A stretch of 64,000 nt of DNA from Chloroflexota bacterium (lineage in GTDB: Bacteria > Chloroflexota > Dehalococcoidia > DSTF01 > JACRBR01): positions 15,006-79,005 of the forward strand of contig JBBING010000003.1 in the NCBI GenBank assembly GCA_037444005.1. The letters are read 5' to 3'. The notes beneath the pieces are model-generated. The model saw nothing but the letters and a program-made list of their open reading frames with translations, had not been told where the DNA came from and searched no databases. Position 1 is the first letter of the stretch; the number at the start of each line of letters is the position of its first letter. Positions 18,429-64,000 of this stretch are shown piece by piece. The position numbers and the translations under genes are program-made.

Positions 18429-18435
18429 CGCGCGG

Positions 18436-25762: not shown

Positions 25763-27054
25763 CCGCGCGCGGCCCGTTCCGCTGGGGAGCGGCGCTCGTC
25801 GCGGCGGTCCTCGCGCTCGGCGCGATCGCCGGGCTTTCGCGCAGCGTCGGCGCGCAGACGCTGCACGTCGACAGCGTCGAGGCGACGAACGCGTTTCCCG
25901 CGGGCGCGGTGTTCTCCATCTTCGCCCGGATCCCTGAGCCTCCGAAAGAGGTGCGCCTGCGGTACAGCATCGCCCCCGACGGCACCGAGGCGATGCGCGT
26001 GGCGGAGTGCTCGGGGATGAACCCCATCGGCTGTCGCGCCACCGTGGGCGACACGTTGGACACGTTTATGATCCCGGGCGCCGAAGTGACGTTCTCATGG
26101 GAGTTCACGCTTCCTGACGGCACGCGGCTCACTACCGACCCGCAGCGCTTCGTCTACGAGGACACGCGGTTCGAGTGGAACACGGAGTCGGCCGGCAACG
26201 TCACGGTCTACTACTACGGCTCCAATCGCGACCTGGCGCGCCGCGCGCTGGCGGCTGCGGAGGAAACGCTGGACCGTCTCGGAGGCATGCTCGGCGTCCG
26301 CGTGGCCTTCCCTGTCAAGGTCTTTCTGTACGAAGACGCCTCTACGATGAGGCCCGCCATTCTGTCCAACCCGCGCGCGGGCGTGGTGACGCTGGGCGAG
26401 GTCTACTTCTCGGATACGGCGATGGTGGCGGCAGACGTCGCGCCCGAGGACGTGACCCGGCACGAAGTCGCGCACATCGTGATCCGCGAGGCCACGCGCG
26501 GGCCATTTGGTGTGCCCGCCTGGCTCAACGAGGGCACGGCGGTCTGGGCGCAGGAGGAACCGCTGGGCGGCGAACTGGATGCGCTCGACGCCGCCATCGC
26601 GCGGGACCGCGTGCTCCCGCTTCAGGTGTTGAGCTCTTCGAGCGCGGCGGGCAATCCCGACACCGTGAGTCTGTTCTACGGGCAGTCGTACTCCGTCGTG
26701 AACTATCTCATCACGACGTACGGCGAGGAGAAGTTCCGTCAGCTCTTCGCGGTGTTCAAGGAAGGCGCCACCACAGACAAGGCCCTGCGCACCGTCTATG
26801 GGCTGGGCGTGCGGGAGCTCGAGAACGCCTGGCGGGCGTCCCTGGGCCTGCCGCCGAGGGCGATTCCTTCGCCTACCGTGGAAGCGACTCCTGCCGGCAC
26901 GCGGACGCCTGTCGGCGCGACCTCGGGCCAACAGCCTGCGGGCGACGACGGTGGGTTCCCTGTGGCGGTCGTGGTGGCGATCGCCGCCGGCGCGCTCGCG
27001 TTGGCGGGCGCCATCGTGGGGCTGGGCGTCATCGCTGCGAGGAAGGCGAGCTAG
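25759..27054 (+). CDS. Secreted zinc metallopeptidase (gluzincin-like HEXXH...NEG), C-terminal TM anchor
   Basis: GTG overlapping the prfB stop. Signal peptide, then HEVAHIV plus a downstream WLNEGTA motif, and a C-terminal hydrophobic helix VAVVVAIAAGALALAGAIVGLGVIAA. Confidence 0.7.
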   Translation: MTARGPFRWGAALVAAVLALGAIAGLSRSVGAQTLHVDSVEATNAFPAGAVFSIFARIPEPPKEVRLRYSIAPDGTEAMRVAECSGMNPIGCRATVGDTLDTFMIPGAEVTFSWEFTLPDGTRLTTDPQRFVYEDTRFEWNTESAGNVTVYYYGSNRDLARRALAAAEETLDRLGGMLGVRVAFPVKVFLYEDASTMRPAILSNPRAGVVTLGEVYFSDTAMVAADVAPEDVTRHEVAHIVIREATRGPFGVPAWLNEGTAVWAQEEPLGGELDALDAAIARDRVLPLQVLSSSSAAGNPDTVSLFYGQSYSVVNYLITTYGEEKFRQLFAVFKEGATTDKALRTVYGLGVRELENAWRASLGLPPRAIPSPTVEATPAGTRTPVGATSGQQPAGDDGGFPVAVVVAIAAGALALAGAIVGLGVIAARKAS

Positions 27055-28574: not shown

Positions 28575-28578
28575 CGGT

Positions 28579-29385
28579 TCATCGTCCCGGCAGGATGAGG
28601 CCGCTCTGCGTCCTGCGAAACGAGGGGGCTTCTTCCGAAGACGGGCGGGGCGGCGGCCCGACCGGCGTCGCCGGGCCGACGTGACGCCGCGACGTCGTGG
28701 CGAGGGGCGACGGCTCCTCCGCAGACGCTTCGACGAGCGCGTCCGCCAGGTCCTCTTCGAACTCGACCTCGCCGACCAGCGCGATCCTTCCGTCCATGAT
28801 GGTGGTCGGGACCTCGCGCACTTCGTGACGCTCCATGAGGTCGGGGAACTCGGTGACCTCGACGACGGACGCATGCACTCGCGGGCTGGCGAGCGCGAGC
28901 CGCGCCGCGATGAGCGCCATCGCGGCGGAATGCGGGCACGGGGGCGCCACCAGGACAGTAAGGTCGACGTCGCGGCGCATCTTTTTGAGGATTCGCGCCG
29001 TCTCTCTCGAGACCATGGGCTCGCCATGGGACGCCGCGATGATCGCGTCGACGAAGGCCGGGAACAGGTCGGCCGCGGGGATGCCGAAGAATCGCAGCGG
29101 ACGGTTCAAGATGCCCCGGACGACGATGCCGGGAATGCGGTCGACGCCGAGCCGCGCCGCGGCGGCGCGCTCTTCGGAGAACTCATGCACGGTGAGGACG
29201 ATGCGCTCGGACAGGCTCGCCAACTCGCGGAGCATCTTCCGCACGTCTTCGCAGAAGGCGCACTCCTCGCGACCGGGCAGGACCAGCTTCGAGGGCCGCT
29301 GGGTGAAGAAATCGATGCGAACTCTGCCGCCGAGCTCTCTCTCGAAGAGCGATCGAATCGCTTCCTGCTCGCGCAGCGGGATCAC
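28579..29385 (-). CDS. PDO/glutaredoxin-like thioredoxin-fold protein (two Trx units: CAFC and CPHS)
   Basis: Two thioredoxin-fold repeats with CAFC and CPHS active-site motifs. The ATG overlaps the upstream stop (ATGA). Confidence 0.75.
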   Translation of the reverse strand: MIPLREQEAIRSLFERELGGRVRIDFFTQRPSKLVLPGREECAFCEDVRKMLRELASLSERIVLTVHEFSEERAAAARLGVDRIPGIVVRGILNRPLRFFGIPAADLFPAFVDAIIAASHGEPMVSRETARILKKMRRDVDLTVLVAPPCPHSAAMALIAARLALASPRVHASVVEVTEFPDLMERHEVREVPTTIMDGRIALVGEVEFEEDLADALVEASAEEPSPLATTSRRHVGPATPVGPPPRPSSEEAPSFRRTQSGLILPGR

Positions 29386-45108: not shown

Positions 45109-46029
45109 ATGGCCATGGAGAGCGAACGGTCGAAGAACGGCGACGGCGCCGCCACGGGGACGTGGACGGTCAAGAAGGGCCTCGCCCAGATGCTCAAGGG
45201 CGGCGTCATCATGGACGTGGTGACGCCAGAGCAGGCGAAGATCGCGGAGGAGGCCGGCGCGTGCGCCGTCATGGCGCTCGAACGGGTGCCGGCGGACATT
45301 CGGGCGGCGGGGGGCGTCGCCCGCATGGCTGACCCCGAGGTCATCATTCGCATCATGGAGGCCGTGACGATTCCCGTGATGGCGAAGTGCCGCATTGGTC
45401 ACTTCGTCGAGGCGCAGGTGCTCGAGGCCATCGGCGTCGACTACATCGACGAGTCTGAAGTGCTGACCCCGGCGGACGAGGCGCACCACGTCAACAAGCA
45501 TCTGTTCAAGGTGCCGTTCGTGTGCGGGGCCCGGGACCTGGGTGAGGCCCTGCGGCGTATCGGCGAGGGCGCGGCGATGATCCGCACGAAGGGCGAGGCG
45601 GGCACCGGCAATATCGTGGAAGCGGTGCGGCACATGCGGGCCGTATGGGACGGGATCCGCCGCATTCAGAACATGCCGGACGAAGAGCTCATGGCGGAAG
45701 CGAAGAACCTGGGCGCCCCGTACGAGCTCGTCAAGATGGTGAAGGAAGAGGGCCGGCTCCCCGTGGTCAACTTCGCTGCCGGCGGCGTGGCCACGCCGGC
45801 CGACGCGGCGCTCATGATGCAGCTCGGCGCCGACGGCGTCTTCGTGGGGTCGGGCATCTTCAAGTCGGAGAACCCCGAGAAGCGGGCGCGGGCCATCGTC
45901 CGGGCCGTGACGCACTACAACGACCCGAAGATCATCGCAGAGGTCTCCCGCGGGCTGGGCGAGCCGATGCGCGGGCTCGACATCGCCTCTATTCCCAGGG
46001 AAGAGCTGCTGGCGGGTCGCGGCTGGTAA
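45109..46029 (+). CDS. pdxS: Pyridoxal 5'-phosphate synthase lyase subunit PdxS
   Basis: Near-identical conserved blocks [20 protein letters not shown] and [16 protein letters not shown]. Confidence 0.97.
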
Positions 46030-46059
46030 CCCCGCGACGTTGGCAGGAAGGAGCCGTTC

Positions 46060-46752
46060 ATGCCCCTGCTTACGGAGGATCAGCGCACCCAGATCAAGGA
46101 ACATCTCGAGCAGCGCCTGGTCGACCCCGTCGAGATCGTCCATTTCACGCAAGCGGAGTCCCCGCTCATCGTGCCGGGGCGCCACGAGTGCCAGTACTGC
46201 AAAGAGACGCGCGAGCTGCTCGCCGAGGTGAGCGAGCTCTCCGACAAGATCCGGCTCACCGTCTACGACCTGGTGCGCGATCGCGAACAGGCCGAGCGGT
46301 ACGGCGTCGACAGCGTTCCCGCCACGATCTTTTCCAGTCAGCACACGAAGGGTGTCGTCCGCTACTTCGGCGTGCCCTCGGGGTACGAGTTCGCGGCTGT
46401 GCTCGAGGACCTGGTCGACCTGTCGACCTCGGCGTCAGGGCTCAGCGCCGACACGCTCGCCAAGCTGGGGGCGCTAACGCAGGATGTGCACATCCGTGTC
46501 TTCGTCACCCCCACCTGACCGTACTGCCCCCAGGCGGCCAGGTTGGCCCACGAGATGGCGAAGGCGAGCGAACGGGTGACCGCGGACGTGATCGAAGCGA
46601 TCGAGTTTCCGCATCTGGCGCAGAAGTACCGCGTGATGGGCGTCCCCAAGACGGTCATCAACGACCGCGTCGAGATCGTGGGGGCCGTGCCGGAATCGCA
46701 TCTCATCACGAAGGTCATGGAAGCGGTGGAGGGACCCGCCGCCTCCGGCTAG
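46060..46752 (+). CDS. PDO/glutaredoxin-like thioredoxin-fold protein with in-frame TGA at 46516-46518 (candidate selenocysteine; alternatively a nonsense-disrupted gene)
   Basis: AAGGAG RBS. Unit 1 carries CQYC. The frame-1 TGA falls exactly where the first Cys of the second active site is expected (VFVTPT-[TGA]-PYCPQAARLAHEMAKAS), and the same frame continues 234 nt to a stop at 46752. Confidence 0.55.
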
Positions 46753-46781: not shown

Positions 46782-47390
46782 GTGAGAGCCGGCGTACTCG
46801 CCCTGCAAGGCGACTTCGAGGAACACGTGTCGATGCTCCGGCGCCTCGGCGTGGAGGCCGTCGAGGTGCGATTGCCGCAGCATCTCGAAGGGCTCGACGG
46901 CATCATTCTTCCCGGGGGCGAGAGCACGACCATCGTTCGCCTTATCGACGAGTACGGCCTGCGTGAGCCGCTGCGCAAGTTCGCGGAAGCGGGCGGCGCC
47001 CTCTGGGGCACCTGCGCCGGCATGATCGTGCTCGGGCGCCGCGTGCCTGACCTCGACCGGCCGCCACTGGGATTGATGGACCTGACGGTTCGCCGCAACG
47101 CGTTCGGCAGGCAGATCGATAGCTTCGAGGCGTGGGTCGAGGTGCGCGGGATGGACGGCGGGCCGTTCCCGGCCGTCTTCATCCGCGCGCCGCGCATCGA
47201 GGAGGTGGGACCCGAGGTCGACGTGCTGGCGACGCTAGACGACGGCACGATGGTCGCGGCGCGCCAGGGGAGCATGCTCGCGACCGCGTTTCATCCGGAG
47301 CTGACGGACGATACGAGATTCCACCGCCTGTTTCTCGAGCTCGCGAGCGGCGCCCGGGGCGGGGCTCGCCTCGCGGCGGGGACGAGTTGA
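46782..47390 (+). CDS. pdxT: Pyridoxal 5'-phosphate synthase glutaminase subunit PdxT
   Basis: GTG start 6 nt after a TACAAT (leaderless-like). VRAGVLALQGDFEEH..., catalytic GTCAGMI, C-terminal FHPEL. Confidence 0.9.
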   Translation: MRAGVLALQGDFEEHVSMLRRLGVEAVEVRLPQHLEGLDGIILPGGESTTIVRLIDEYGLREPLRKFAEAGGALWGTCAGMIVLGRRVPDLDRPPLGLMDLTVRRNAFGRQIDSFEAWVEVRGMDGGPFPAVFIRAPRIEEVGPEVDVLATLDDGTMVAARQGSMLATAFHPELTDDTRFHRLFLELASGARGGARLAAGTS

Positions 47391-47434: not shown

Positions 47435-48376
47435 ATGCCTAGCGCGCGCGCGCCGCTGCCCACGGACCTCGTGGCGCTGGTCCTACACGACGGCCGGCGT
47501 TGTCCCAACGAAGCCGTCACCTGGGATCGCATCGGAAAGGGGGACGCCCCAGGGCCGCTGGAGACGGCGGTCGAGCAGTGGCTGTCGTTCGCCACGGGCC
47601 GGCACACGTGGATCAGCGTGAAAGGGCGCACGCTCCGAGGGCTGGCCTCGGCGCGCGTCCGCGGGTCGCGGCAGGCCTGGGAGATCGACTGCCTGATCGA
47701 CGCGGCCGAAGACGACGAGGGCGTGCTCATCAACCTGCTCGACCGAGTGGTCGCCGACGCTGGACGCTCCCGGGCCGAGAAGGTCTTCGTCCGACTGGAT
47801 GCGGCGAGCGCCGCGCTGGACACGGCGCTGCGCTGCGGCTTCTCGATCGTCTCGACCGAGGGGCTGTACTACCGCCCGAACCCTGCGCCGGTGGACCCGG
47901 CCCACGCCGACCCCGGGTGGCGGCGCCGCCTCAAGACCGACGCCTACGCTCTGTACCGGCTGTACAACGCCGCAGTGCCGGAGTCGGTGCGCCGTGTCGA
48001 AGCGGCGACGCTGCCCGAGTGGGTGGCGGCGCAGGAGCGGCTGTCGGCGCCCCGGCGCACGCACCAGTTCGTGGTCGAGCGCGACGGCCGCGTGCTGGCG
48101 TGGGCGCGAACGGCGGTGGACGGCGACGTCGGACGCTTCCAGGTGGTGGCCGCGCCCGGCGAGCCCGAACTTTTGGACCGGGTGTTGCACGCCGCCATTC
48201 TGCGCCTGGCTCAAGCGTCTGCCCTCTACACGCTCGCGCCGCTCTACGACGGGGCGCTGATCCGGCGCCTGGAGGACCTGGGATTCGGACGGATCACCGA
48301 GTTCGCGGTGCTGGCGCGGAGGACCGCCGAGACGGTGAAGGCCCCGCGGTTCGCGCCGGCAAACCTTGTGGGATAA
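47435..48376 (+). CDS. Hypothetical protein, tandem GNAT-like fold (acetyltransferase-like)
   Basis: 313 aa. Two repeats resembling GNAT C-terminal halves ([13 protein letters not shown]; [19 protein letters not shown]). No firm family assignment. Confidence 0.5.
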
Positions 48377-48386
48377 GAGGAACGGT

Positions 48387-49976
48387 ATGCCTGTACAGCG
48401 TGAAATCACCGATGACCTCGACGCGCTGCTGGACGCGCTGCCGCCGCATATCAGCAGGCCGCTGCGCGAACGGAAGGATAATTTCGAGCTGCTCGAGGTC
48501 GTGATGGACCTGGGACGCCTCCCCGAAGCGCGCTACCCGGGGCGCGACGTCGTGCTCTCCGACGGCGAGGTCACGGAGGCCGACATCGAATACGTGGTCT
48601 CGCGCATCGGCGAGTTCGGTGACGACAACCGGGCCGGCATCGAGCGGACGCTGCACCGCATCTCGTGCATCCGGAACCGCCGGGGCAGGATCGTGGGCCT
48701 GACGTGCCGCGTCGGACGCGCGGTCTTCGGCACCATCCGCATCATCGAGGACCTCGTCCGGACGGGGAAGAGCATCCTGCTGCTCGGAAGGCCGGGTGTC
48801 GGCAAGACCACGATGTTGCGGGAGGTCGCCCGGGTGCTCGCCGACGACATGAACAAGCGGGTGGTCATCGTCGACACGTCGAACGAAATCGCCGGCGACG
48901 GCGACATCCCGCACCCGGGGATCGGGGCGGCGCGACGCATGCAGGTGGCTCACCCGTCGCTCCAGCACGCCGTGATGATCGAGGCCGTTGAGAACCATAT
49001 GCCCGAGGTCATCGTCATCGACGAGATCGGCACGGAGCTCGAAGCGCTGGCGGCGCGCACCATTGCCGAGCGTGGGGTGCAACTCGTCGCCACGGCGCAC
49101 GGGAACGAGCTCGAGAACCTGATGATGAACCCGACGCTCTCCGACCTCATCGGCGGCATTCAGTCGGTGACGCTGAGCGACGAAGAGGCCCGCCGCCGGG
49201 GCACGCAGAAGTCGATCCTCGAACGCAAGGCGCCGCCGACCTTCGACGTCGTCATCGAGATCCAGTCGTGGGACCGCGTGGCGGTGCACCGCGACGTCGC
49301 TGAAACGGTCGACTCGATCCTGCGCGGGTACCCCATCGCGCCCGAGGTGCGCGAGATCGGCGAAGACGGCGAGGTGCGCATCGTGTCCGGCCCCGGCGTC
49401 CCGCGGGAGCGGCGCGGCGCACGCGAGGCGCCCCTGCCCGGAGGGAACGGCGAGCGCCGGACCCCCGTTCGGTTGATCTATCCCTTCGGTGTGTCGCGGA
49501 AGCGCCTGGAGCAGGCCATCCGCCAGACGGGGTCTCCCGTGGGCATCGCGGAACACCTGTATGAGGCGGACACCGTCCTGACGCTGAAGAACTACTACCG
49601 GCGGAAGCCGCAGGCGCTGCGGGAGGCCGAGGCGAGAGGCATTCCGGTCTATGTGCTGAAGAGCAACACGCTGCTGCAGATCGAGCAGTCGCTCCTGTCG
49701 ATGCAGGAGACGGTGCGGCGCGGTGGCGATCCCGTGGCGCGGGCGATGCGTGAGGCCGAAGACGCCATCGGCGAGCTGATGAGCGAGGGCACGAGCGGGG
49801 TGGTCGAGCTCTCACCGCAGAACGCGTACATCCGCCGCCTGCAGCATCAGATGGCGCAGCGCTACAACGTCGCGTCGCGGTCCGTGGGCCGGGAGCCGTT
49901 CCGGCGCGTGCAGATCTACCGCTTGCCCGCCAACGAGCAACCGCTGTTCAGCACGGACGAGGGCGAAGAGGAATAA
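48387..49976 (+). CDS. R3H-domain AAA-type ATPase (Ycf45/SpoIIIAA-like)
   Basis: AAGAGGAA RBS. Walker [10 protein letters not shown], Walker B VIVIDEIG and a C-terminal R3H-like region. Confidence 0.8.
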
Positions 49977-51755: not shown

Positions 51756-52787
51756 ATGAAGGCAGCGCGAATTCATGAGTCCGGCGGTGTCGAAAGCTAC
51801 GTGTACGAGGACGCCCCCGACCCCGTTGCGGGGCCCGGTGAAGTCCGCGTACGCGTCCGGGCCGTGGCCCTGAACCACCTCGAGGCGTGGGCCGCCAAGG
51901 CGCCGCCGGGCGCGAAGTACGACCCCCCGCGCATTCTCGGGGCCGACGTCGCGGGCGAGATCGACACCGTCGGGCCCGGCGTGACCCACGTGAAGCCGGG
52001 CGACGCCGTGATGGTGCACCCGGGCGTGAGCTGCGGCCACTGCCTCGCGTGCCTTCGCGGAGAAGACAACCGCTGTCGGGAGTACCGGCTCCTGGGCCAG
52101 GGTCGCGACGGAGGGCTCGCTGAATACGTGGTCGTGCCGGCGGTCAACGTGTTCCCGAAGCCTGATCGGCTCTCCTTCGAGGAGGCGGCGTCCATCCCCC
52201 TCGTCTTCGTGACGGCGTGGCACATGCTGATGGACCGGGCCAAGCTGCGGCGAGGCGACGTCGTGCTGGTGAACGGCGCCGGCTCGGGCGTGGGGTCGGC
52301 GGCGATCCAGATCGCGCGCCTGCACGGCGCCGGGCGGATCATCGCGACGGCGGGCTCGGCGGCGAAGCTCGAGAAGGCGCGGGAGCTCGGGGCCGACGAC
52401 GTCATCGATTACACGAAGGCCAGGGTCGACGAGGAGGCGCGGCGGCTCACAGGGGGCCGGGGCGTCGACGTCGTCGTGGAGCACGTCGGGGGAGAGATCT
52501 TCGAGGCTTCGGTGCGGGCGCTGGCGCCCGATGGCCGCCTCGTGACGTGCGGCGCCACCGCCGGCCCGAACGCCACGCTGAACGTGACGCGGTTCTTTTT
52601 AGCGCACCAGACGATCCTCGGTTCTTTTATGGGGCGCAAGGAAGAGCTCTTGCAGGCGATGCCGTACTTCGAGCGGGGCGAACTCCGTCCGGTGGTCGAC
52701 CGCGTCTATCCGCTCTCGGAAATCAGATCCGCGGTCGCGCGGATGCTCAACCGGGAGCAGTTCGGCAAGATCGTCCTCGTGCCGTGA
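51756..52787 (+). CDS. Zinc-dependent alcohol dehydrogenase (MDR family)
   Basis: GGAGG RBS. Structural and catalytic Zn motif GHCLACLRGEDNRC and an NAD(P) motif GAGSGVGSAAIQ. Confidence 0.9.
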   Translation: MKAARIHESGGVESYVYEDAPDPVAGPGEVRVRVRAVALNHLEAWAAKAPPGAKYDPPRILGADVAGEIDTVGPGVTHVKPGDAVMVHPGVSCGHCLACLRGEDNRCREYRLLGQGRDGGLAEYVVVPAVNVFPKPDRLSFEEAASIPLVFVTAWHMLMDRAKLRRGDVVLVNGAGSGVGSAAIQIARLHGAGRIIATAGSAAKLEKARELGADDVIDYTKARVDEEARRLTGGRGVDVVVEHVGGEIFEASVRALAPDGRLVTCGATAGPNATLNVTRFFLAHQTILGSFMGRKEELLQAMPYFERGELRPVVDRVYPLSEIRSAVARMLNREQFGKIVLVP

Positions 52788-52793
52788 CGTGCG

Positions 52794-53000
52794 TCAGTCG
52801 TCCGCGGGAGGCTCGATGGGAGTGGTGACCAGCGCGCGGCCGATCCAGAACGCCACGTAGAGCGCGCCCAGGAACCCGGCGGTGACGGGGATGGCCAGCG
52901 CCATGTAGCTCCGCCGGAGCACCCCACCGAGGAAGACGATGCCCGTGAGCACGCTGAGGACGCAGATGATCATGCCGTACGTGCGGGACCGCTGGGCCAT
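52794..53000 (-). CDS. Small hypothetical membrane protein (2 TM)
   Basis: 68 aa with an AGGAG RBS 9 nt upstream of the ATG. Two hydrophobic helices. Confidence 0.4.
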   Translation of the reverse strand: MAQRSRTYGMIICVLSVLTGIVFLGGVLRRSYMALAIPVTAGFLGALYVAFWIGRALVTTPIEPPADD

Positions 53001-53082
53001 GACGGGGGCTCCTGTCGCCATCGCATTCCGTCCTGCGGAAGTGGGGTCGACGAGCGCGGCTCGCCGGCAGGCAGCGTTATAG

Positions 53083-55004
<1,922 letters not shown>

Positions 55005-55136
55005 CGGGCAGTCTCCTCGCGGCGAAGCTGTCCGCTATGGTAGCGCCCGCCCGGCGAAGGCGATAGCGGCGCTGGCGCCGTGGCTCGCCTTTCGCGCACA
55101 ATAGCGCCACATCGAACACAGGAGGAGACGGGCGCG

Positions 55137-56375
55137 ATGGAGAAGCGGAGGCTCGGCATCGGGTTCGTGGGAGCGGGTTTCATGAACCGCTTCCACGTGC
55201 AGAGTCTGGTCGGCGTGCGCGACGCCGACGTCGCCGGCGTCTTCAGCCCCACCCGTCAGCGAGCCGAGGCGCTGGCGGCGCTCTCGAAGGAGCTGGCAGT
55301 AGGTGAGCCCAAGGTCCACCGTTCGGTGACGGACCTGGTGGCGGACCCGGCCGTCGACGCTATCTGGATCGCGGCGACCAACGACACGCGCGTCGAAATC
55401 GTCGAAGAGATCGTGGACGCTGTCCGCTCGGGGAAGGGCGAGCTCGTGGGCGTCGCCTGCGAGAAGCCGCTCGCGCGGAATGTGGCCGAAGCCCGACGCA
55501 TGGTCGAGCTCGTCGAACAGACCCCGTTGCTCCACGGCTATTTGGAGAACCAGGTCTTCGCGCCGAGCGTTACCCGCGGGAAAGAGATTATCTGGCGACG
55601 AGCCGTGCCCATCGCCGGGCGTCCGTATCTCGCGCGAGCGGCGGAGGAGCACAGCGGGCCGCACATGCCGTGGTTCTGGGACGGCCGGCGTCAGGGCGGG
55701 GGCGTCCTCAACGACATGCTGTGCCACAGCTACGAGGTCGCGCGCTTCCTGCTCACGGCGCCGGGCGAGCCGCGCGAGGCCCTGACGGTCGAAGAGGTGA
55801 GCGCGCAGATCGCGTCCCTCAAATGGACACGGCGGGAATACGCCGAGGCGCTCCGGGAGATGACCGGCGGCCTCGTCGACTACGCCACCGCTCCGGCGGA
55901 GGACTTCGCGCGGGCGGCCGTGCGTCTTCGCGGTCCGAACGGCGAACGGCTGCTGGTCGAAGCCACGACATCGTGGAACTTCGTGGGCGCCGGGCTGCGT
56001 CTGCGCACAGAGCTCCTCGGCCCGGAATACGCCATGCAGATCGATAGCCTCAACACCGATCTCACGGTGTTCATGAGCCGGCGGGTTCAGGGTGAAGCGG
56101 GGGAGGACCTGGTCGAAAAGCAGAACGCCGAGCAGGGCCTCATGCCTGTCGTCGCCGACGAGCCTGCGACCTACGGGTACACGGCGGAGAACCGGCACAT
56201 GGTCCGATCGTTCCTGGAGGGACGCATGCCCGACGAGACCTGGCGAGACGGGCTCGCCGTCGTCGAGGTCCTCATGGCCTGTTACAAGTCGGCTGAGGAG
56301 GGGCGCTCGGTGCCGTTCCCGGTGGATTTGGGCGACTTCGTGCCGGCCGTGGCGCAGGGACGGTGGAAGGCGTAG
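55137..56375 (+). CDS. Gfo/Idh/MocA family oxidoreductase
   Basis: AGGAGGAG RBS. N-terminal Rossmann motif LGIGFVGAGFMNRFHV and a conserved EKP motif (VACEKPLA). Confidence 0.88.
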   Translation: MEKRRLGIGFVGAGFMNRFHVQSLVGVRDADVAGVFSPTRQRAEALAALSKELAVGEPKVHRSVTDLVADPAVDAIWIAATNDTRVEIVEEIVDAVRSGKGELVGVACEKPLARNVAEARRMVELVEQTPLLHGYLENQVFAPSVTRGKEIIWRRAVPIAGRPYLARAAEEHSGPHMPWFWDGRRQGGGVLNDMLCHSYEVARFLLTAPGEPREALTVEEVSAQIASLKWTRREYAEALREMTGGLVDYATAPAEDFARAAVRLRGPNGERLLVEATTSWNFVGAGLRLRTELLGPEYAMQIDSLNTDLTVFMSRRVQGEAGEDLVEKQNAEQGLMPVVADEPATYGYTAENRHMVRSFLEGRMPDETWRDGLAVVEVLMACYKSAEEGRSVPFPVDLGDFVPAVAQGRWKA

Positions 56376-56944
56376 CTGTCCCCGCGGGCAGTTCCCCGCC
56401 AGACCCTGGGGCGCGCGAGGTTGGCCCCATTGGTCATCTCGCCGCGGCGGCTGTCGCGGTCGCCGGGGCGCTGGTCGCGGCTCCTGTGGCGGTCATCGAA
56501 GAGCTCTCGTCCGGACTCGGGTTGCTGCTCCTGCCCTTCGTCGCAGCGCCGACGATCGAGGAGATTCTGAAGCCCGCCGGCGTGTATTTGCTTCTCGTCC
56601 GCTGGCCGCGTCTCGTGCGAGGGCAGCTCCACGCGGCGCTCCTGGCCGCGCTGGCGGGCTTCTCGTTCGGGCTGCTGGAGAGCGCCGCGTTCGTCACGGT
56701 TTCCGTCGATGAGCCGGCGCGAGCGTTCGTCGCGTACCGGTTCACCGCTCCGATCGCGATGCACGCGACGGCGAGCTTCATCGCTGGTTCGGGCATCGGA
56801 CCCGACCTCATCGCGTGGGCGAGGAGCGGTTCGGCGCTGCCGCGGAGGACGGTCTGGCGCTTCGGCGCGGCCATCGCGCTCCACGCGGCGTACAACGTGA
56901 CCGCGGTGGCGCTGGCGCTGAGCGGAGCGCTCGACTTCGGTTAG
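56363..56944 (+). CDS. PrsW-family intramembrane protease-like protein
   Basis: A multi-TM protein carrying EExxK (IEEILKPAG), FxxxE (FGLLESAAF) and HxxxN (ALHAAYN) motifs. Confidence 0.6.
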   Translation: MEGVAVPAGSSPPDPGAREVGPIGHLAAAAVAVAGALVAAPVAVIEELSSGLGLLLLPFVAAPTIEEILKPAGVYLLLVRWPRLVRGQLHAALLAALAGFSFGLLESAAFVTVSVDEPARAFVAYRFTAPIAMHATASFIAGSGIGPDLIAWARSGSALPRRTVWRFGAAIALHAAYNVTAVALALSGALDFG

Positions 56945-57996
56945 GGGCCTTCGCCGGCGGGTTCCACCGGGACTTCGCATCCCTCAGCGGCGGAACGGTA
57001 CGCGGCTTCCAGGATGCGTTGGACGTTGATGGTCTCGGCGGGCCTCACGGCGGGCTCGGCTTCGCCGCGAAGGACCTGCACCCAGTGCGCCATCTCGCGC
57101 TCGTACATCCGGGTCTCCGCGACCTGGAGCCGCTCATCGGCGGGGATGCCCTCGCGGTTACGGTAGATCACGGGCGGATGGGTCGTGGCGCCCGCTTCGT
57201 CGCCGCACAGCGTCACGTTGAAGACCTGCTTCTCGATGTGAGCGGCCCAGGTCGCCCGGACGAGCAGCGTGGCGCCGTTGGCGAAGCGCACCAGCGCGAC
57301 GGCAAAGTCCTCGACGTCGAACCGCTCGGGGTCCCAGGCGTTCCGGAACATGCGGGCGATGTCGGGCCGATGCCCGAACCGGCGTTGCATCGACGCTGAC
57401 ACGCGCGCTGGCTCGGGGTTCCCCATGAGCCAGATCGCCAGGTCGAGCATGTGCACGCCGATGTCGAGGAGCGCCCCGCCGGCCGCGTGGGAGGACTGGT
57501 GAAACGTGCCCCACGTGGGAATACCCATCCGGCGCATCGCTGTTGCTTCGGCGTAGTAGATGTCGCCGAGGTGCCCCGCCTGCGCCACTCGGTGGATGGC
57601 GCGCGGTCCGGCGTCGAAGCGGAAGCTTTGCGCAGCCATGAGGATGCGGCCGTGGCGGGCGGCCGCGGTGAACATCTCGCGGGCCTCGGCGGCGGTGACC
57701 GCGAGGGGCTTTTCGCACAGGACATGGGCGCCCGCCTCGAGCGCCGCGAGCACCGGCTCTCGGTGGAACCGGTTGGGCACGCAGACGCTCACGGCGTCGA
57801 GCCGCTCGTTCGCCAGCATCTCGCGCCAGTCGGTGTGCACGCGGGGGATGTCGTACTGCTCGGCGAGCGCCCGCGCAGGCTCGGGGTTGATGTCGCAGAT
57901 GGCCGTGACCCGCTGCCCGGCCGCGCGGAAGCCGGGCAGGTGCACCACCCGGGCGGCCCAGCCTGCGCCGACGATCCCGATCCTCAGTTCGCTCAT
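56941..57996 (-). CDS. Gfo/Idh/MocA family oxidoreductase
   Basis: Rossmann motif RIGIVGAGWAARVVHLPG and the EKP motif (LCEKPLA). GGAGG RBS. Confidence 0.88.
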   Translation of the reverse strand: MSELRIGIVGAGWAARVVHLPGFRAAGQRVTAICDINPEPARALAEQYDIPRVHTDWREMLANERLDAVSVCVPNRFHREPVLAALEAGAHVLCEKPLAVTAAEAREMFTAAARHGRILMAAQSFRFDAGPRAIHRVAQAGHLGDIYYAEATAMRRMGIPTWGTFHQSSHAAGGALLDIGVHMLDLAIWLMGNPEPARVSASMQRRFGHRPDIARMFRNAWDPERFDVEDFAVALVRFANGATLLVRATWAAHIEKQVFNVTLCGDEAGATTHPPVIYRNREGIPADERLQVAETRMYEREMAHWVQVLRGEAEPAVRPAETINVQRILEAAYRSAAEGCEVPVEPAGEGP

Positions 57997-58811
57997 GCGC
58001 CTCCGCCTTCCGGGGTTCCCTGCAGCCGTTCGAGCAGGCGTTTCGCTGCGAGGATGCCCTGACGTTCGGGGAGTCGTTCGCCCTCGTACTCGATGCCGAC
58101 GTACCCGTGATAGCCCGCGCCTACGACGATGTCGAGCATGCGGGCGAAATCGATGGTCGTCTCGTTGCCGTCGGGGCCGAAATCGTAACACTTAGCGCTG
58201 ACGGCCTTGGCGTACGGCATCAGCTTCGCGATGGCCTCGTACCGGTCGACTTCCGGCGGGAAGTTCCCGAAATCAGGCAGCGTTCCGAACCAGGGGGAAT
58301 CGACGGCCTCCACGAGCGCGGCAAGCCAGTCGGGATCGGACGAGAGGCCGCCGTGATTCTCCACGAGCACGCTGACTCCCGACGCGCGGGCGTAGTCCAC
58401 CAGCGCGGAGAAGCTCTCGACGCAACGCTCCAGGGCGCTATCATCCCCCGGGCGCGCGCCGGTGTTGCACCGGATCGAGTCGCACCCGAGCACCGCCGCA
58501 ACGTCGACCCACTTATGGTGGTTCCTGGCGGCGAGGAGCCGTCGCTCTCGCTCCGGCGCCGCCATGCTTCCCTCGCCGTCGCACATGATGAGCAGCAACC
58601 TGACGCCCCGGTCCTCGGCCCGGCGCCGCAGCTCCTTCAGATAGGCGTACTGCGGCGACGGGAAGAAGGTGTTGACCAGCTCCAGCGCTTCGATGCCGAA
58701 ATCGGCGCACAGATCGACCATGCCGAGCTGATCGATCTCGCGGGCGAAGAACATGCGATGCATGGACCAGGCGGCGAGCGAGATACGGAACCGAGGGACG
58801 GACGCGCTCAC
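57993..58811 (-). CDS. Sugar phosphate isomerase/epimerase (xylose-isomerase-like TIM barrel)
   Basis: AP-endonuclease-2/XI TIM-barrel signatures (LVENHGG, GYHGYVGIEYEGE). GTG start with an AGGAG RBS. Its stop overlaps the downstream start (ATGA). Confidence 0.8.
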   Translation of the reverse strand: MSASVPRFRISLAAWSMHRMFFAREIDQLGMVDLCADFGIEALELVNTFFPSPQYAYLKELRRRAEDRGVRLLLIMCDGEGSMAAPERERRLLAARNHHKWVDVAAVLGCDSIRCNTGARPGDDSALERCVESFSALVDYARASGVSVLVENHGGLSSDPDWLAALVEAVDSPWFGTLPDFGNFPPEVDRYEAIAKLMPYAKAVSAKCYDFGPDGNETTIDFARMLDIVVGAGYHGYVGIEYEGERLPERQGILAAKRLLERLQGTPEGGGA

Positions 58812-59014
58812 AGCGGAAGCTCTCCTGAGCGAGGCCCTGATTCGTGGGCCTAGCATACGGCGTGTCGCGGCGTGAGTCATCTGCCGGAAATTGCGGCGCC
58901 TGTACCGCGAAATAATGCATTTTCCCCACGACTGACATCGTGAAAATCGAAACAATGTAGCCGCCGGTCGGCAGCCGGGGCCGATGCGCGTCCCGGAGCG
59001 AAGACGAGGAGAGC

Positions 59015-60079
59015 ATGAAGCGCGACATTCTCATCGCCGGCGTGTTGTGGCTTGCGCTGACCGTCGTCGGTCTCTTCTTTGTCGGGCGCATTGACTACTT
59101 CCCGTCGACGATGTCCGACAAGGGCGAAGAGGTCGAGCACGCGTTCCGGGTCCTGGCGCTCCTCGCCGTCCCCGTGGCCGCTCTGGTCGTCACGGTCCTG
59201 TTCTACAGCGTCATCGTCCATCGCTCGAAGGGCGACCCCGTCGAAGACGGCCCGCCCATCATGGGACGAGGCGCGTTCCCTATGGCCTGGTTCGGGATCA
59301 CCTCCGGACTGACGCTGCTGGTGATGATCTATCCGGGCCTGACGAGCCTCGCGAAGATGATCGACAACCCGACACCAGACCTCGTCGTGAACGTCGAGGG
59401 CGTCCAGTGGACGTGGCTCGTCAGCTATCCGCAGCAAGACGTGCGGAACGTCCGCGAACTCGTTCTGCCGGTCGACCGAACGGTGCGGTTCGACATCACG
59501 AGCCGGGACGTACTCCACTCGTTCTGGGTCCCCGCGTTCCTGATGAAGATCGACGCGGTCCCGGGAAGGACGACGACGGTAACCTTCAAGCCCACCGAGA
59601 CGGGCTCGTATCAAGAAGACTCGTCCCTCAGGCTGCAGTGCGCTGAACTCTGCGGCCTCAGTCACTCCCGGATGATGCTGCCCGTGCGGGTGGTGACGGA
59701 GGAGGAGTTCCAGGCGTGGGTCGAGAAGAATCGCCGGCCGCCGGCCACGCCCGCGCCCACAGCCGGGCCTGGTGCAGAGGTGGAAGAAGTCACCATCGTG
59801 GCGAAGAACGTGCTCTTCGACCTGAAGGAGATTCGGGTGAAGGCCGGCTCGCAGGTGAAGCTCACGGTCGACAACCAGGACGCCGGCGTTCCCCACAACT
59901 GGTCGCTGTACGAGAGCGAGGACGCGGCGAAAGCCGGCGAGACGCCGCTCGCCGCCACCGAGGTCGAGACGGGCCCGGTGACGCAGGAGCTGACCTTCCC
60001 CGCTCCGGACCCGGGCGTCTACTTCTTCCGCTGCGATGTGCACCCGACCACGATGGTCGGTACCTTCATCGTCGAATGA
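59015..60079 (+). CDS. ctaC: Cytochrome c oxidase subunit II with fused C-terminal cupredoxin (blue-copper) domain
   Basis: Two N-terminal TM helices. CuA ligands HSFWVP ... CAELCGLSHSRM. An extra approximately 100-aa C-terminal domain carries type-1 copper ligands (VPHNW ... FRCDVHPTTM). Confidence 0.9.
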   Translation: MKRDILIAGVLWLALTVVGLFFVGRIDYFPSTMSDKGEEVEHAFRVLALLAVPVAALVVTVLFYSVIVHRSKGDPVEDGPPIMGRGAFPMAWFGITSGLTLLVMIYPGLTSLAKMIDNPTPDLVVNVEGVQWTWLVSYPQQDVRNVRELVLPVDRTVRFDITSRDVLHSFWVPAFLMKIDAVPGRTTTVTFKPTETGSYQEDSSLRLQCAELCGLSHSRMMLPVRVVTEEEFQAWVEKNRRPPATPAPTAGPGAEVEEVTIVAKNVLFDLKEIRVKAGSQVKLTVDNQDAGVPHNWSLYESEDAAKAGETPLAATEVETGPVTQELTFPAPDPGVYFFRCDVHPTTMVGTFIVE

Positions 60080-60107
60080 GAGCGCGGGAGCTCGAGGAGC
60101 GAGTGCG

Positions 60108-61991
60108 ATGACCGGAGCGGTTGTGCAGCCCAACGAAGAGCGGCCGAGCCTCGCGAGCGCGTTCGTTCCCATGCTGCGCGGGCTGCTGTGGGGCGCCGTC
60201 GGGTTCGCGGTGGGTGCGGGCCTGACCGCGCTGGCGCGCGTGGCGTCAGGGGAGAGCGCCTGGTGGCTCGAACTGAACTTCACGGTCGGTTACGCCTTCG
60301 GGCTCGTGGGCTGGCTCCTCGGGGTCGGCATGTGGGAGCGGTGGGGCCGCGAGTGGTTCGGACTTCAGACCCGGCGCGATCTCACCGACTGGCGGAGGTT
60401 TTTCGCCTTCACCACCGACCACAAGGTCATCGGAGTGCAATACCTGGTGACCTTCCTGCTCCTGTTTCTGGCGGCGGGTCTGCTCGCCATGCTCATCCGG
60501 ATGCAGCTCCTGCAGCCGGACGGCGCGGTGATGAGCGACGGCACGTACAACCGCGTGATGAGCCTGCACGGGATCATCATGATCGCCGTGGCCGTCGCGG
60601 CTGTGATCGGCGGGTTCGGGAACTACTTTGTGCCCCTGCTCATCGGCGCCCGCGACATGGCGTTTCCGCGGCTCAACGCCCTCAGCTTCTGGCTCGTGCC
60701 GCCCGTGGCGGTCCTCCTGCTCGCCGCGCAGGCCGCGGGAGGATGGGACTCCGGCTGGACCGCGTACCCGCCCCTCAGTGTCCGGAACGCGGCCGGGCAG
60801 GTCTTCTTCAACCTCGCGATCATCACGTTCGGACTGTCCTCCATCCTCGGCGGCCTCAACTTCATCGTGACCGTCTTCCACATGCGGGCGAAGGGCATGA
60901 CCTGGGGACGGCTGCCCATCTTCGTCTGGTCCATGTTCGCCGCAGCATGGCTCGCGCTGACGTTCACGCAGTTCTTCGCGGCGGCGATGCTGATGATCAC
61001 GCTGGACCGCCTGGCGGGCACGTCGTTCTTCGTGGCGGACCAGGGTGGGAAGCCGCTGCTGTACCAGCACATCTTCTGGTTCTACTCGCACCCGGCGGTG
61101 TACATCTTCGTCCTGCCCGGGTTCGGCATCACCCTCGAAGTCCTGGCGCACTTCTCGCGCAAGCCGCTGTTCGCGTACAAGTGGGCGGTCGGTGGCTTTC
61201 TCGGCATCGTCGCGGTGAGCGGCATCGTCTGGGCCCACCACATGTTCGTGAGCGGTATGGACAACAAGCTGCTCGCGCCGTTTCTCGTAACGACCGAGAT
61301 CATCTCGATCCCGACGGGCCTGGTCTTCCTGTCGGCGCTGGGCACCATCTGGCAGGGGCGCCTGTGGCTGAAGACGCCGATGCTGTTTGCCCTGGGGATG
61401 GTGTTCAACTTCCTAATCGGCGGCGTCACGGGCATCTTCCTGGCGGACGTGCCGACGGACATCAACCTGTCGGACACGTACTTCGTGGTGGCGCACTTCC
61501 ACTACACCATCATCGGCGGCGAGATCTTCGCGTTGTTCGCCGGGCTCTACTACTGGTTCCCGAAGATGACGGGACGGATGTACAACGAGCGGCTCGGCCA
61601 GCTCCACTTCTGGCTGATGATCATCGCGTTCAACCTGACGTTCCTCCCGATGTTCTGGGCCGGCCTGCACGGCATGAACCGGCGCATCGCCACGTACCCG
61701 GAGGACCTGCAGGCGCTGAACGTGTTCATCAGCGTCATGGGCTTCCTGCTGGCGAGCAGCTTCCTGTTCTTCGTGGCGAACATAGTGTGGTCGCTGGTCA
61801 AGGGGCCGAAGGCTGCGGCCGACCCCTGGCGCGCCCGGACGCTCGAGTGGCGGGTGTCGTCGCCGCCGCCCATCGAGAACTTCCCGGCGCCGCCCGTGGT
61901 CAGCGGCCATCCCTATGACTACGGCGTGCGGGGAGCGCCGGCTCACGCCCTGCTCGGCGTCGCCGGCGCGAGTGGAGAGGCGAAGGTATGA
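60108..61991 (+). CDS. ctaD: Cytochrome c oxidase subunit I (haem-copper oxidase, A-type)
   Basis: GAGGAG RBS. Conserved His ligands in WFYSHPAVYIFVLPGFG, GIVWAHHMF and VVAHFHY. About 12 or more TM helices, with an approximately 60-aa N-terminal extension. Confidence 0.96.
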   Translation: MTGAVVQPNEERPSLASAFVPMLRGLLWGAVGFAVGAGLTALARVASGESAWWLELNFTVGYAFGLVGWLLGVGMWERWGREWFGLQTRRDLTDWRRFFAFTTDHKVIGVQYLVTFLLLFLAAGLLAMLIRMQLLQPDGAVMSDGTYNRVMSLHGIIMIAVAVAAVIGGFGNYFVPLLIGARDMAFPRLNALSFWLVPPVAVLLLAAQAAGGWDSGWTAYPPLSVRNAAGQVFFNLAIITFGLSSILGGLNFIVTVFHMRAKGMTWGRLPIFVWSMFAAAWLALTFTQFFAAAMLMITLDRLAGTSFFVADQGGKPLLYQHIFWFYSHPAVYIFVLPGFGITLEVLAHFSRKPLFAYKWAVGGFLGIVAVSGIVWAHHMFVSGMDNKLLAPFLVTTEIISIPTGLVFLSALGTIWQGRLWLKTPMLFALGMVFNFLIGGVTGIFLADVPTDINLSDTYFVVAHFHYTIIGGEIFALFAGLYYWFPKMTGRMYNERLGQLHFWLMIIAFNLTFLPMFWAGLHGMNRRIATYPEDLQALNVFISVMGFLLASSFLFFVANIVWSLVKGPKAAADPWRARTLEWRVSSPPPIENFPAPPVVSGHPYDYGVRGAPAHALLGVAGASGEAKV

Positions 61992-62230
61992 CGGGAAACG
62001 GTCACAGCGGAGACGGCCACGGGCCGGGAGAGGGCGTGTCGGCCGCGGTTCGAACCGGATGGATGGTCTTTGTGGCCCTCGCGGCGCTGACCATCGTCGA
62101 GTACATCGTCGCGGTGAGCGTTGACGCGAACCTCCCGGTCATCGCGATCATCGCCGTCGCGAAGGCCGCGTTCATCGTCTACTACTTCATGCATGTCGTG
62201 CGCGCCTGGCGCAGAGAGGCAGGGCACTGA
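61988..62230 (+). CDS. ctaF: Cytochrome c oxidase subunit IV (small CtaF-like subunit)
   Basis: 80 aa, two TM helices. The ATG overlaps the ctaD stop (ATGA). Confidence 0.7.
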   Translation: MTGNGHSGDGHGPGEGVSAAVRTGWMVFVALAALTIVEYIVAVSVDANLPVIAIIAVAKAAFIVYYFMHVVRAWRREAGH

Positions 62231-62814
62231 TGGCGATCGCGAGCACGTACGCCGAGGCCCGCGCGGCCGTCGAACATCACGAAGAGCACCGCCCGGCGAT
62301 GAATCAGCTCGGGCTGTGGCTGTTCTTCGTCTCGGAGTCCTTTCTGTTCGCGGCGCTGCTGGCCGCGCGGTTCTACCTGGCGGGCACGGACAAGCCGGAG
62401 CACCTGAACCAGTTCCTCGGGCTCATCATTACGTCGGTGCTCCTGTTGAGCAGCTTCACGGCCTACCGGGCGGAGACAGCCATCGCTCATGGCGACCGCT
62501 CGGCGTTCCTGCGCAATCTGCTGGCGACTATCATCATGGGCGCCGTGTTCGTCGTGGGCGTCGGGTTCGAGTGGAGCACCGCCGAATTCTCCCGCCACGA
62601 GCCGTACGGCACGGCGTTCTTCTCCATGACCGGGCTGCATGCGTCCCACGTCATCAGCGGCGTCGCGATGCTCGCGCTCGTCTTCGTTCTCGGGCTGCGC
62701 GGGCACTTCTCTCCGGAGGGCTACTGGGGCGTCGAGGCGACCATCAAGTACTGGCACTTCGTCGACGTCGTGTGGGTCTTCTTCTACCCCGCCCTGTATC
62801 TGATGGGGTGGTGA
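62230..62814 (+). CDS. ctaE: Cytochrome c oxidase subunit III
   Basis: FFVSESFLFAALLAARFYL, TGLHASHVISG and YWHFVDVVWVFFY signatures. Confidence 0.93.
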   Translation: MAIASTYAEARAAVEHHEEHRPAMNQLGLWLFFVSESFLFAALLAARFYLAGTDKPEHLNQFLGLIITSVLLLSSFTAYRAETAIAHGDRSAFLRNLLATIIMGAVFVVGVGFEWSTAEFSRHEPYGTAFFSMTGLHASHVISGVAMLALVFVLGLRGHFSPEGYWGVEATIKYWHFVDVVWVFFYPALYLMGW

Positions 62815-62817
62815 CGG

Positions 62818-63357
62818 GTGATCGCCGGGGCGACCCGGACCGACGCCGAAGCGACTGAGCGCCGAAGCAGCGCCCTGCCATGGGGGACCATCGCATGGTG
62901 GGCGCTCTCGCTTTTCGCCGGCCTTGCGCTGGCCGGAGGCGTCAGCGTGGCGTCGTGGTTCGCGCTGTCGGACGGGCCGACGCGCGCGCCGAAACCCGTC
63001 GAGATCGCCATCCCCGCAGGCACGTACGATCGCATCCGGTCGGGCGCGGCGCTATCGCCCATGCCGAGCACGCTCGAGTTCGTGCAAGGCGACACGCTCA
63101 TCGTGCGGAACGAGGACCGGGTCCAACACCAGATCGGCTCGTTTTCCATTCCGCCCGGTGGCGTCACCAGTATCCCGCTGACGCAGGCGAGCTCGCAGTC
63201 GTTTCTGTGCAGCTTTCACCCGGCGGGCGTGATCGGCCTGAACGTGAAGGCGCGGTCCAATCCGTGGGGCATCCTGTGGCCGACGTTCTTGCTCGGGGTC
63301 CCGTTCGGGATGGCGATCGGCGGCGTAGGCGCGATCCTGCGCAGGATCGAGTGGTGA
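62818..63357 (+). CDS. Hypothetical membrane protein downstream of cox operon (periplasmic beta-rich domain with His/Cys)
   Basis: GTG 4 nt after the ctaE stop. N- and C-terminal TM helices flank an approximately 110-aa domain containing HQIGSF...FLCSFHPAG. Confidence 0.5.
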   Translation: MIAGATRTDAEATERRSSALPWGTIAWWALSLFAGLALAGGVSVASWFALSDGPTRAPKPVEIAIPAGTYDRIRSGAALSPMPSTLEFVQGDTLIVRNEDRVQHQIGSFSIPPGGVTSIPLTQASSQSFLCSFHPAGVIGLNVKARSNPWGILWPTFLLGVPFGMAIGGVGAILRRIEW

Positions 63358-63361
63358 ACGG

Positions 63362-64000
63362 CTACCCGAAGCTGTGAGCGCGGTCGGGCAGGACGTCGGC
63401 GGGCGCCAGGGGCTCGAAGCGCTCTGCGATGACGTTGACCGCCGCCTGCTCGCGTTCGACCCGGCCGTGCACGATGAGGGCCGGGGCGAACTGGATGAGG
63501 TACGGATACCGCGACACCAGCGCCGGGCGGGTGATGATGTTGATCATCCCGAAGTCGTCCTCAAGAGTGTGGAACACGAAGCCCTTGGCGGTGCCCGGCG
63601 CCTGACGCACCGCCACGATGCCCGCCACCGTCACTGGCGTGCCGCTCTCGAGCTGCTCCAGCCGCCGGCTCGAGGTGATGCCCTCGTGCAGGTAGGGCCG
63701 CACCAGATCCATGGAGCGCCCGCGGATGGCGATCCCGGACCATGCGAGGTCCGCCATGACGCGCTCTTCGTGCGTCATGGCGGGCGGAGCGAAGGCGTCG
63801 CCCTCGAACGACAGCGGTAGTGGAAGCTGGTCTCCCAGCGGCCGGTAGAAGAGTCCGAGCTGCCAGAGCAGCTCGCGTTCGTGCAGGCCGGTCCAGGCGA
63901 AGGCGCCGACCTCGATGAGGCGCTCGATGGGCTCGCGGGGGAGCCGGGTACGGCGCCAGAAGTCCCAGAGGGAACGGTACGGGCCATTGGCCCGCTCCGC
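63362..64000 (-). CDS. dnaE2: DNA polymerase III alpha subunit, C-terminal part (error-prone DnaE2-like); 5' end beyond window
   Basis: C-terminal OB-fold TVAGIVAVRQAPGTAKGFVFHTLEDDFGMINIIT with a short tail after it (DnaE2-like). The in-frame sequence continues without stops to the window edge. Confidence 0.6.
   Translation of the reverse strand, partial: AERANGPYRSLWDFWRRTRLPREPIERLIEVGAFAWTGLHERELLWQLGLFYRPLGDQLPLPLSFEGDAFAPPAMTHEERVMADLAWSGIAIRGRSMDLVRPYLHEGITSSRRLEQLESGTPVTVAGIVAVRQAPGTAKGFVFHTLEDDFGMINIITRPALVSRYPYLIQFAPALIVHGRVEREQAAVNVIAERFEPLAPADVLPDRAHSFG

Follow-up and report, generated by a model that had tools for sequence, protein, structure and literature searches.

A probable selenocysteine codon in a protein disulfide oxidoreductase gene located between pdxS and pdxT of a Dehalococcoidia genome

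Introduction

The stretch of DNA analyzed here, hereafter called the window, comprises 64,000 nucleotides of a Chloroflexota bacterium (assembly GCA_037444005.1, contig JBBING010000003.1, positions 15,006 to 79,005 of the forward strand). At 46060-46752 it carries a gene for a protein disulfide oxidoreductase (PDO) that is interrupted by an in-frame TGA, precisely at the codon where the first cysteine (Cys) of the second CxxC motif is expected. The question raised by this locus is how that codon is read: as a stop, as a damaged Cys codon, as a standard amino acid, or as selenocysteine (Sec). A previous inspection of the same DNA, referred to below as the sequence-only reading, proposed that Sec replaces the attacking Cys of the motif. 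Our comparative analysis supports this selenoprotein interpretation, and we consider it highly probable that the UGA at residue 153 is decoded as Sec through the SelB mechanism and a selenocysteine insertion sequence (SECIS). The support consists of a TGA conserved among orthologues, the Cys that other homologues have in its place, selection acting downstream of the TGA, the protein family itself, a SECIS hairpin backed by comparison between relatives, and a selA gene on the same contig.

Results

The TGA-containing gene and its protein family

The complete open reading frame (ORF) extends from ATG 46060 to 46752 on the + strand, with a Shine-Dalgarno-like AAGGAG (46048-46053, as read from the letters) located 6 nt ahead of the start codon. 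Read-through translation yields 230 amino acids (aa) with Sec at residue 153. The N-terminal thioredoxin-fold unit contains a CQYC redox motif (residues 44-47, 46189-46200) that is kept in all orthologues, and the C-terminal unit contains a U-P-Y-C motif (U denoting Sec; residues 153-156, 46516-46527), in which the TGA at 46516-46518 is followed by CCG TAC TGC. The sequence around the codon reads VFVTPT-TGA-PYCPQAARLAHEMAKAS. The remainder of the C-terminal unit (46519-46749) comprises 77 sense codons after the TGA and is closed by a TAG at 46750-46752. Both the TGA, located where the second CxxC would begin, and the 230-aa read-through product, as described in the sequence-only reading, were thus recovered at these coordinates.

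The window has a GC content of 68.6%, with about 0.85-0.9 GC at third codon positions (GC3), and the coding signature of the PDO gene (GC3 0.90-0.92) runs across the TGA. When both strands were scanned, this was the sole in-frame TGA with a strand-consistent, high-GC3 coding signal on both sides. A second match of the scan, near 63218 on the - strand, was rejected because it lies antisense to the + strand gene 62818-63357, leaving the PDO site as the only real candidate selenoprotein in the window.

With Cys put for Sec, the read-through protein matched the NCBIfam profile TIGR02187 with 272.7 bits (E 1.6e-81; cutoff 185) over profile positions 2-209 of 209. This profile is named 'PDO_seleno_TRX', protein disulfide oxidoreductase. 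With its two CxxC-type motifs, CQYC and UPYC, the predicted protein aligns end to end with PDO structures, the nearest being 1J08 (P. horikoshii) and 1A8L (P. furiosus), both at E about 1e-48. Full-length alignments were also obtained for 2AYT/2YWM (A. aeolicus) and 2HLS (A. pernix), with the whole set ranging from E 1e-48 to 2e-26, and the AhpF N-terminal domain aligned more weakly. The 1J08 protein shares CQYC in its first unit, and its FVTPTCPYCP aligns with FVTPT-U-PYCP of the window protein; the two differ in that 1J08 has Cys where the window gene has the TGA.

High-confidence predictions class proteins of the TIGR02187 type with a UxxC motif as a selenoprotein family (PMC13188914, PMC9312934). 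In an earlier survey, Symbiobacterium thermophilum and Carboxydothermus hydrogenoformans were listed as carrying it (PMC1794560). ABB15282.1 of the latter species serves as the reference member, and the family has also been reported from Asgard archaea. As the family is catalogued in surveys and reviews and is named accordingly in NCBIfam, PDO selenoproteins are a known kind. The window protein agrees with the catalogued family in scoring above the cutoff of the hidden Markov model (HMM), in having UxxC with one Sec, in its two units and in its abundant Cys homologues, its likeness to ABB15282.1 being that of family HMM and motif description. It is an added member, from a Dehalococcoidia clade, of this already catalogued selenoprotein family.

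Conservation of the TGA across relatives

When proteins were searched with the read-through product (C for U) as query, nine distinct relatives with identities of 73-99% were retrieved, every one of them exactly 152 aa long, which shows that public gene callers cut all of them at the same codon. The nearest named genome was a Dehalococcoidia metagenome-assembled genome (MAG; locus L001) at 96% identity. On the contigs that we fetched, L001, L006/L007, L008-L010, L011, L013, L014, L015 and L136 all have a TGA at this column, and these orthologues come from independent assemblies (NCBI MAGs, JGI, Logan and ENA). A Dehalococcoidia homologue at 43% identity (L005) also has TGA at this column, as T-TGA-QYC. 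Cys (TGC or TGT) occupies the column in L002-L004, L012, L137 and L138 and in the PDO structures of the Protein Data Bank. The alignment of orthologues, to which the sequence-only reading had pointed as a check, therefore gave TGA at the Sec column in all close orthologues except L012 (P0001), which at 91% identity has TGC.

An exact-pattern scan for F-V-T-P-T-TGA-x-Y-C-P identified at least 120 metagenome contigs (L016-L135). Among the contigs listed, 70-130 codons were open after the TGA, mostly 70-90, where the contig was long enough, and the frames ended roughly at the usual end of PDO proteins. Pairwise identity among the read-through proteins fell to about 28-35%. The TGA form of the PDO_seleno_TRX family is thus widespread in metagenomes, and the alignments indicate that the distribution of the TGA is that of a conserved functional codon and not of sequencing errors scattered over Cys-coding genes.

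Selenocysteine or a standard amino acid

A candidate bacterial SECIS hairpin is located at 46534-46549 on the + strand, with the core GGCC-AGGTT-GGCC at 46536-46548. The bacterial criteria of the bSECISearch model (PMC13188914, Fig. 2 legend) call for a 3-9 nt apical loop whose first two positions hold G (typically N1-G[G/U]-N-N2, with N1 and N2 paired), 4-16 bp in the upper stem, a UGA-loop distance of 16-37 nt and a minimum free energy of -7.5 kcal/mol or lower. Counting from the base after the UGA, the window hairpin is formed by the pairs G16-C31, G18-C30, G19-C29, C20-G28, C21-G27 and A22-U26, with C17 as a bulge and G23-G24-U25 as the loop (AGGUU if the closing A-U is not counted). The A-GGU-U arrangement fits the loop rule, the GGCC/GGCC stem, extended by A-U and by G16-C31, comprises at least 4 bp, and the distance from the UGA to the loop (21-22 nt) falls in line with the spacing rule; 17 nt separate the TGA from the stem. 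For comparison, the apical loop of the E. coli fdhF SECIS is A-GGUC-U. The window element thus shares with the bacterial model a stem-loop placed immediately 3' of the UGA and inside the coding sequence, together with its loop, stem and spacing rules; it differs in an energy marginally above the threshold, and its family differs in having two hairpin registers. A single copy of the 13-mer GGCCAGGYTGGCC is present in the 64 kb window, for an expectation of 0.02.

With regard to the genes for Sec synthesis and insertion, which the sequence-only reading had proposed to look for in the rest of the genome, selA was found, and selB, selD and tRNA-Sec were not detected in the window or in about 0.9 Mb of fetched loci. 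Contig CAZOUD010000001.1 (L139; GCA_964582925.1; 91,951 bp), retrieved via the COX3 protein of the window, is 100% identical to window positions 52230-64000 over 11,771 bp. It contains a full-length selA of 472 aa (17852-19270, - strand; TIGR00474, 567.5 bits, cutoff 267.9) at the window-equivalent positions 70,081-71,499, i.e., 6.1-7.5 kb past the right end of the window. Because the contig is identical to the window end, selA is located about 23.3 kb downstream of the PDO TGA on the same contig. In three metagenomic loci (L026, L105 and L114), selA was detected 3-4 kb from the TGA-containing PDO genes by tblastn and then verified with NCBIfam.

Side by side with these results, we considered that the UGA might be read as a standard amino acid, i.e., Trp, Cys or Arg, through near-cognate decoding of a leaky UGA-C, or that TGA might be reassigned, in either case without Sec. 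A number of observations weigh on the side of such a reading and against Sec. No tRNA-Sec was found in the window (ARAGORN, Rfam) or in about 0.9 Mb of loci (ARAGORN), the tRNAs of the window being tRNA-Arg and tRNA-His only. Pfam annotation of 30 larger ORFs of the window revealed no sel genes, and tblastn with E. coli probe sequences detected neither selB nor selD in the window or in the same 0.9 Mb; the missing SelB and SelD matches carry little weight. The window hairpin is also thermodynamically unremarkable. Its energy is -7.3 kcal/mol (ensemble energy -8.18) versus the threshold of -7.5, and its stability did not exceed that of dinucleotide shuffles (z -0.3 to -0.6) or of synonymous-codon shuffles (z 0.05). 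RNAfold favours a competing fold in a 45-nt context, an Rfam search around the TGA at a permissive E-value gave one chance match to a small RNA and no SECIS family, and Cys-type homologues can form GGCC-N5-GGCC from A-x-x-L-A codons alone. The hairpins of relatives have 6-8 bp and energies of -10.5 to -11.1 kcal/mol, compared to 4-6 bp in the window. Since the shuffles were not significantly beaten, folding energy was not used as evidence for the window hairpin, which taken alone is indistinguishable from chance. The sequence-only reading had likewise described it as SECIS-like but weak, and the support for it is comparative.

This comparative support comes first from codon choice. The hairpin is built from A-A-R-L-A codons, in which AGG (5.1% of Arg codons in window genes) and TTG (5.2% of Leu codons) are rare, and AGG-TTG or AGG-CTG is kept in every clade member despite a synonymous divergence (dS) of about 0.4-0.8. 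Unrelated Cys forms have CGG, CGA or CTG followed by CTG at this position. About 40 loci have the same 13-mer hairpin motif at an identical offset. In an alignment of 49 sequences in the register of the window (A1), the outermost pair of the GGCC/GGCC stem (columns 21/33) was GC in 36, CG in 6, GU in 4 and AU in 3 sequences, with the CG type arising through two synonymous Ala changes. In a second alignment of 44 sequences (A2) with the other register, GCGAGC-CGUGGU-GCUCGC, one pair was GC in 24, AU in 11 and CG in 8 sequences. Both alignments were chosen by requiring stem pairing, which inflates the percentage of paired bases, and for this reason only the compensatory pair types and a synonymous-shuffle test were used. 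In this test, which covered positions +9 to +39 of all 116 distinct sequences, the natural sequences were 3.5 kcal/mol more stable than their synonymous shuffles, with a mean z of -1.53 and 43% of the sequences in the lowest 5%.

A SECIS-type loop that is maintained by rare codons and compensatory changes argues against a reading without Sec. So does the selA gene on the same contig, as no role of SelA is known beyond making Sec-tRNA(Sec), and so does the site itself, which corresponds to the catalytic Cys in an already catalogued selenoprotein family with UxxC. Reassignment in particular is contradicted by stop-codon usage: TGA closes 32 of the 57 high-GC3 ORFs of the window, pdxT included, and as the most frequent stop codon of the window genes it is not reassigned to sense in this host. 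Many of the TGA-containing PDO genes also terminate with TGA. Read-through with a standard amino acid or reassignment is therefore regarded as quite improbable, and decoding of UGA153 as Sec is retained.

Several further features of the hairpin and of the selA region were observed. The Sec-PDO family (L016-L135) shows two registers, GCGAGC-CGUGGU-GCUCGC centred at about +20.5 and GUGcGGCC-AGGUU-GGCCCAC centred at +24, and the register partly follows protein phylogeny, with 91 of 111 sequences having a nearest neighbour from their own group. Two TGC homologues, L137 (1259-1963, motif at 1729-1741) and L012 (487-1182, motif at 963-975), retain the rare-codon GGCC-AGGTT-GGCC, and L137 also retains the outer GUG/CAC stem; by their sequences, both look like recent Sec-to-Cys conversions that carry a SECIS 'fossil'. 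On the metagenomic contigs mentioned above, which represent one metagenomic lineage, the segments L026 4510-9100, L105 6155-11600 and L114 1250-7246 show a conserved order of genes, namely selA, an M24-type peptidase gene, tsaD, an ECF sigma factor gene and then the TGA-containing PDO gene, with the sigma factor identified in L105 only. On L139, selA is adjoined by genes for an Aminotran_5-family aminotransferase and a PGDH (serA-like) protein.

One protein or two

All public records retrieved divide the PDO gene into a 152-aa gene and a 65-66-aa 'thioredoxin' gene. Taken literally, these calls would mean two polypeptides, one of 152 aa that ends at the TGA and a thioredoxin-like product of 65-69 aa that is initiated at TTG 46543 or ATG 46552. 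Small single-domain thioredoxins do exist, and the profile TIGR00411 matches residues 143-218 of the read-through protein.

To characterize the segment that follows the TGA, we estimated the ratio of non-synonymous to synonymous substitution rates (dN/dS) over 70 codons by the Nei-Gojobori method. Within the clade, dN/dS was 0-0.15. The window and L015 differed by 25 synonymous and 1 non-synonymous changes, the window and L006 by 16 synonymous and none that were non-synonymous, and comparison with the 73%-identical L011 gave a dN/dS of about 0.26 (range about 0.2-0.3). These values indicate that the segment past the TGA is translated in frame and is under strong purifying selection. Eleven codons separate the TGA from the first internal ATG, and they showed solely synonymous changes (TAC/TAT, TGC/TGT, CCC/CCT, CAG/CAA and TTG/CTG), so that their amino acids are conserved ahead of the proposed start. 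An internal start would fall after the U/C-P-Y-C motif and the first beta strand and would yield a product without a redox centre; moreover, no Shine-Dalgarno-like sequence is present ahead of ATG 46552, and the full-length Cys homologues are single proteins. Two separate polypeptides are accordingly a very improbable outcome, in contrast to a single read-through protein containing Sec.

Finally, a TGC>TGA nonsense mutation or a sequencing or assembly error, in a pseudogene or in a gene that truly encodes Cys, which was the alternative named in the sequence-only reading and is favoured by the TGC of L012 in otherwise near-identical DNA, has virtually no likelihood left and is ruled out by the comparative data, given the same TGA in independent assemblies, nine distinct orthologues, the distant L005 and the diverse metagenome contigs, and a downstream dN/dS that is not expected of a pseudogene at dS of up to about 1. 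The claim that Sec stands in for the attacking Cys thus gained support from the TGA shared by orthologues, the Cys of other homologues and the purifying selection downstream.

As a separate observation, dS was consistently lower past the TGA (46519-46749) than ahead of it (46060-46515), for example 0.43 versus 1.09 between the window and L006. Within the clade, the amino acid sequence of the C-terminal PDO unit hardly varies. One possible cause of the lower dS is an additional constraint on the RNA exerted by the SECIS.

Gene neighbourhood and host

Upstream of the PDO gene lies pdxS (45109-46029, + strand; PF01680 SOR_SNZ, 370 bits), and downstream lies pdxT (46782-47390, + strand; TIGR03800, 232.5 bits, cutoff 105.55, profile positions 2-184), which encode the synthase and glutaminase subunits, respectively, of pyridoxal 5'-phosphate (PLP) synthase. 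The profile matches, along with the CQYC motif of the first unit, bear out the architecture and the gene order given in the sequence-only reading. The PDO gene is separated from pdxS by 30 nt, and its stop codon from pdxT by 29 nt; no promoter- or terminator-like site was found between the three genes in a scan of the + strand. The three genes probably share a transcript.

The order pdxS-PDO-pdxT was found throughout the window clade, including the TGC variant L012, and was absent from the other Sec-PDO loci examined (at least 120) and from L002-L005. We had considered this order as a general trait of the Sec-PDO family and rejected it. The comparison of gene orders indicates a lineage-specific arrangement, and in this placement the window clade is unlike other members of the UxxC family.

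A cytochrome c oxidase operon (COX2, COX1, COX4_pro and COX3; 59015-62814, + strand) is located in the window, and on this basis the host is considered an aerobic-type organism. The host, an aerobic-type Dehalococcoidia MAG of 68.6% GC, differs in this respect from the two members described in PMC1794560, of which one is an anaerobic and the other a microaerophilic thermophile. Contig DAOUCR010000027.1 is 99.99% identical to window positions 36060-56518.

Other features of the region are as follows. Public calls begin pdxT at ATG 46833 (185 aa), compared to 202 aa for the version starting at GTG 46782; as the match to TIGR03800 begins at residue 3 of the longer version, the start in the public calls is apparently 17 codons late. 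Directly downstream of pdxT, at 47435-49976 on the + strand, a gene pair conserved in the clade encodes a 313-aa protein without a family hit and a 536-aa protein (SpoIIIAA-like ATPase, PTPase, R3H). A PDO paralogue at 28579-29385 on the - strand has CAFC in unit 1 and a monothiol CPHS in unit 2, just as the sequence-only reading described it, and matches TIGR02187 with 160.5 bits, below the cutoff of 185. A longer ORF at 27051-29027, located on the same strand and without a Pfam hit, overlaps the paralogue in another frame, which renders the gene model at this site ambiguous. Just beyond the right end of the window, L139 11133-15674 (- strand) encodes a 1043-aa PHP / DNA_pol3_alpha protein, a 96-aa ORF and an IMS-family polymerase, which we take to resemble an ImuB/DnaE2 mutagenesis cassette.

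Discussion

Based on these results, we propose that 46060-46752 encodes a cytoplasmic disulfide oxidoreductase of the PDO / AhpF-N-terminal-domain family, a protein of 230 residues with two thioredoxin-fold units. The UGA at 46516-46518 would be recoded such that Sec replaces the nucleophilic, attacking Cys of unit 2, and Cys156 would serve as the resolving residue and selenenylsulfide partner. SelA would convert Ser-tRNA(Sec) to Sec-tRNA(Sec) by the standard bacterial route, and SelB, bound to the hairpin 16-31 nt past the UGA, would bring the Sec-tRNA(Sec) to the ribosome. What we infer in this scheme is that selenium is incorporated, that SelB binds the hairpin, that the host has SelB, SelD and tRNA-Sec, and that the residues play these catalytic roles.

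The placement of the gene leads to the question as to whether the Sec-PDO is functionally connected with PLP synthase. The Sec-PDO might serve the redox maintenance of PLP synthase, e.g., at the catalytic Cys of PdxT, or the selenoprotein might be regulated together with the supply of PLP, which is the cofactor of SelA. We consider a broader proposal unlikely, namely that the Sec-PDO was recruited to the PLP-synthase operon for a functional link and, separately, that the family evolved two non-homologous SECIS hairpins. Two registers derived from different codon sets may record repeated interconversion between Cys and Sec.

The current understanding of Sec decoding is unchanged by this locus, which is mildly interesting for its aerobic host, its position inside pdxST and the two SECIS registers with their 'fossils' in Cys forms. 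The practical value of the finding is an annotation fix, in which the gene pair called in the public records is replaced by a single 230-aa U-P-Y-C oxidoreductase. As a consequence of the split gene, the selenoproteome of these Dehalococcoidia is under-counted. According to a recent review, aerobes rarely retain selenoproteins (PMC13188914), and the corrected call would add one whose host has an aerobic respiratory chain.

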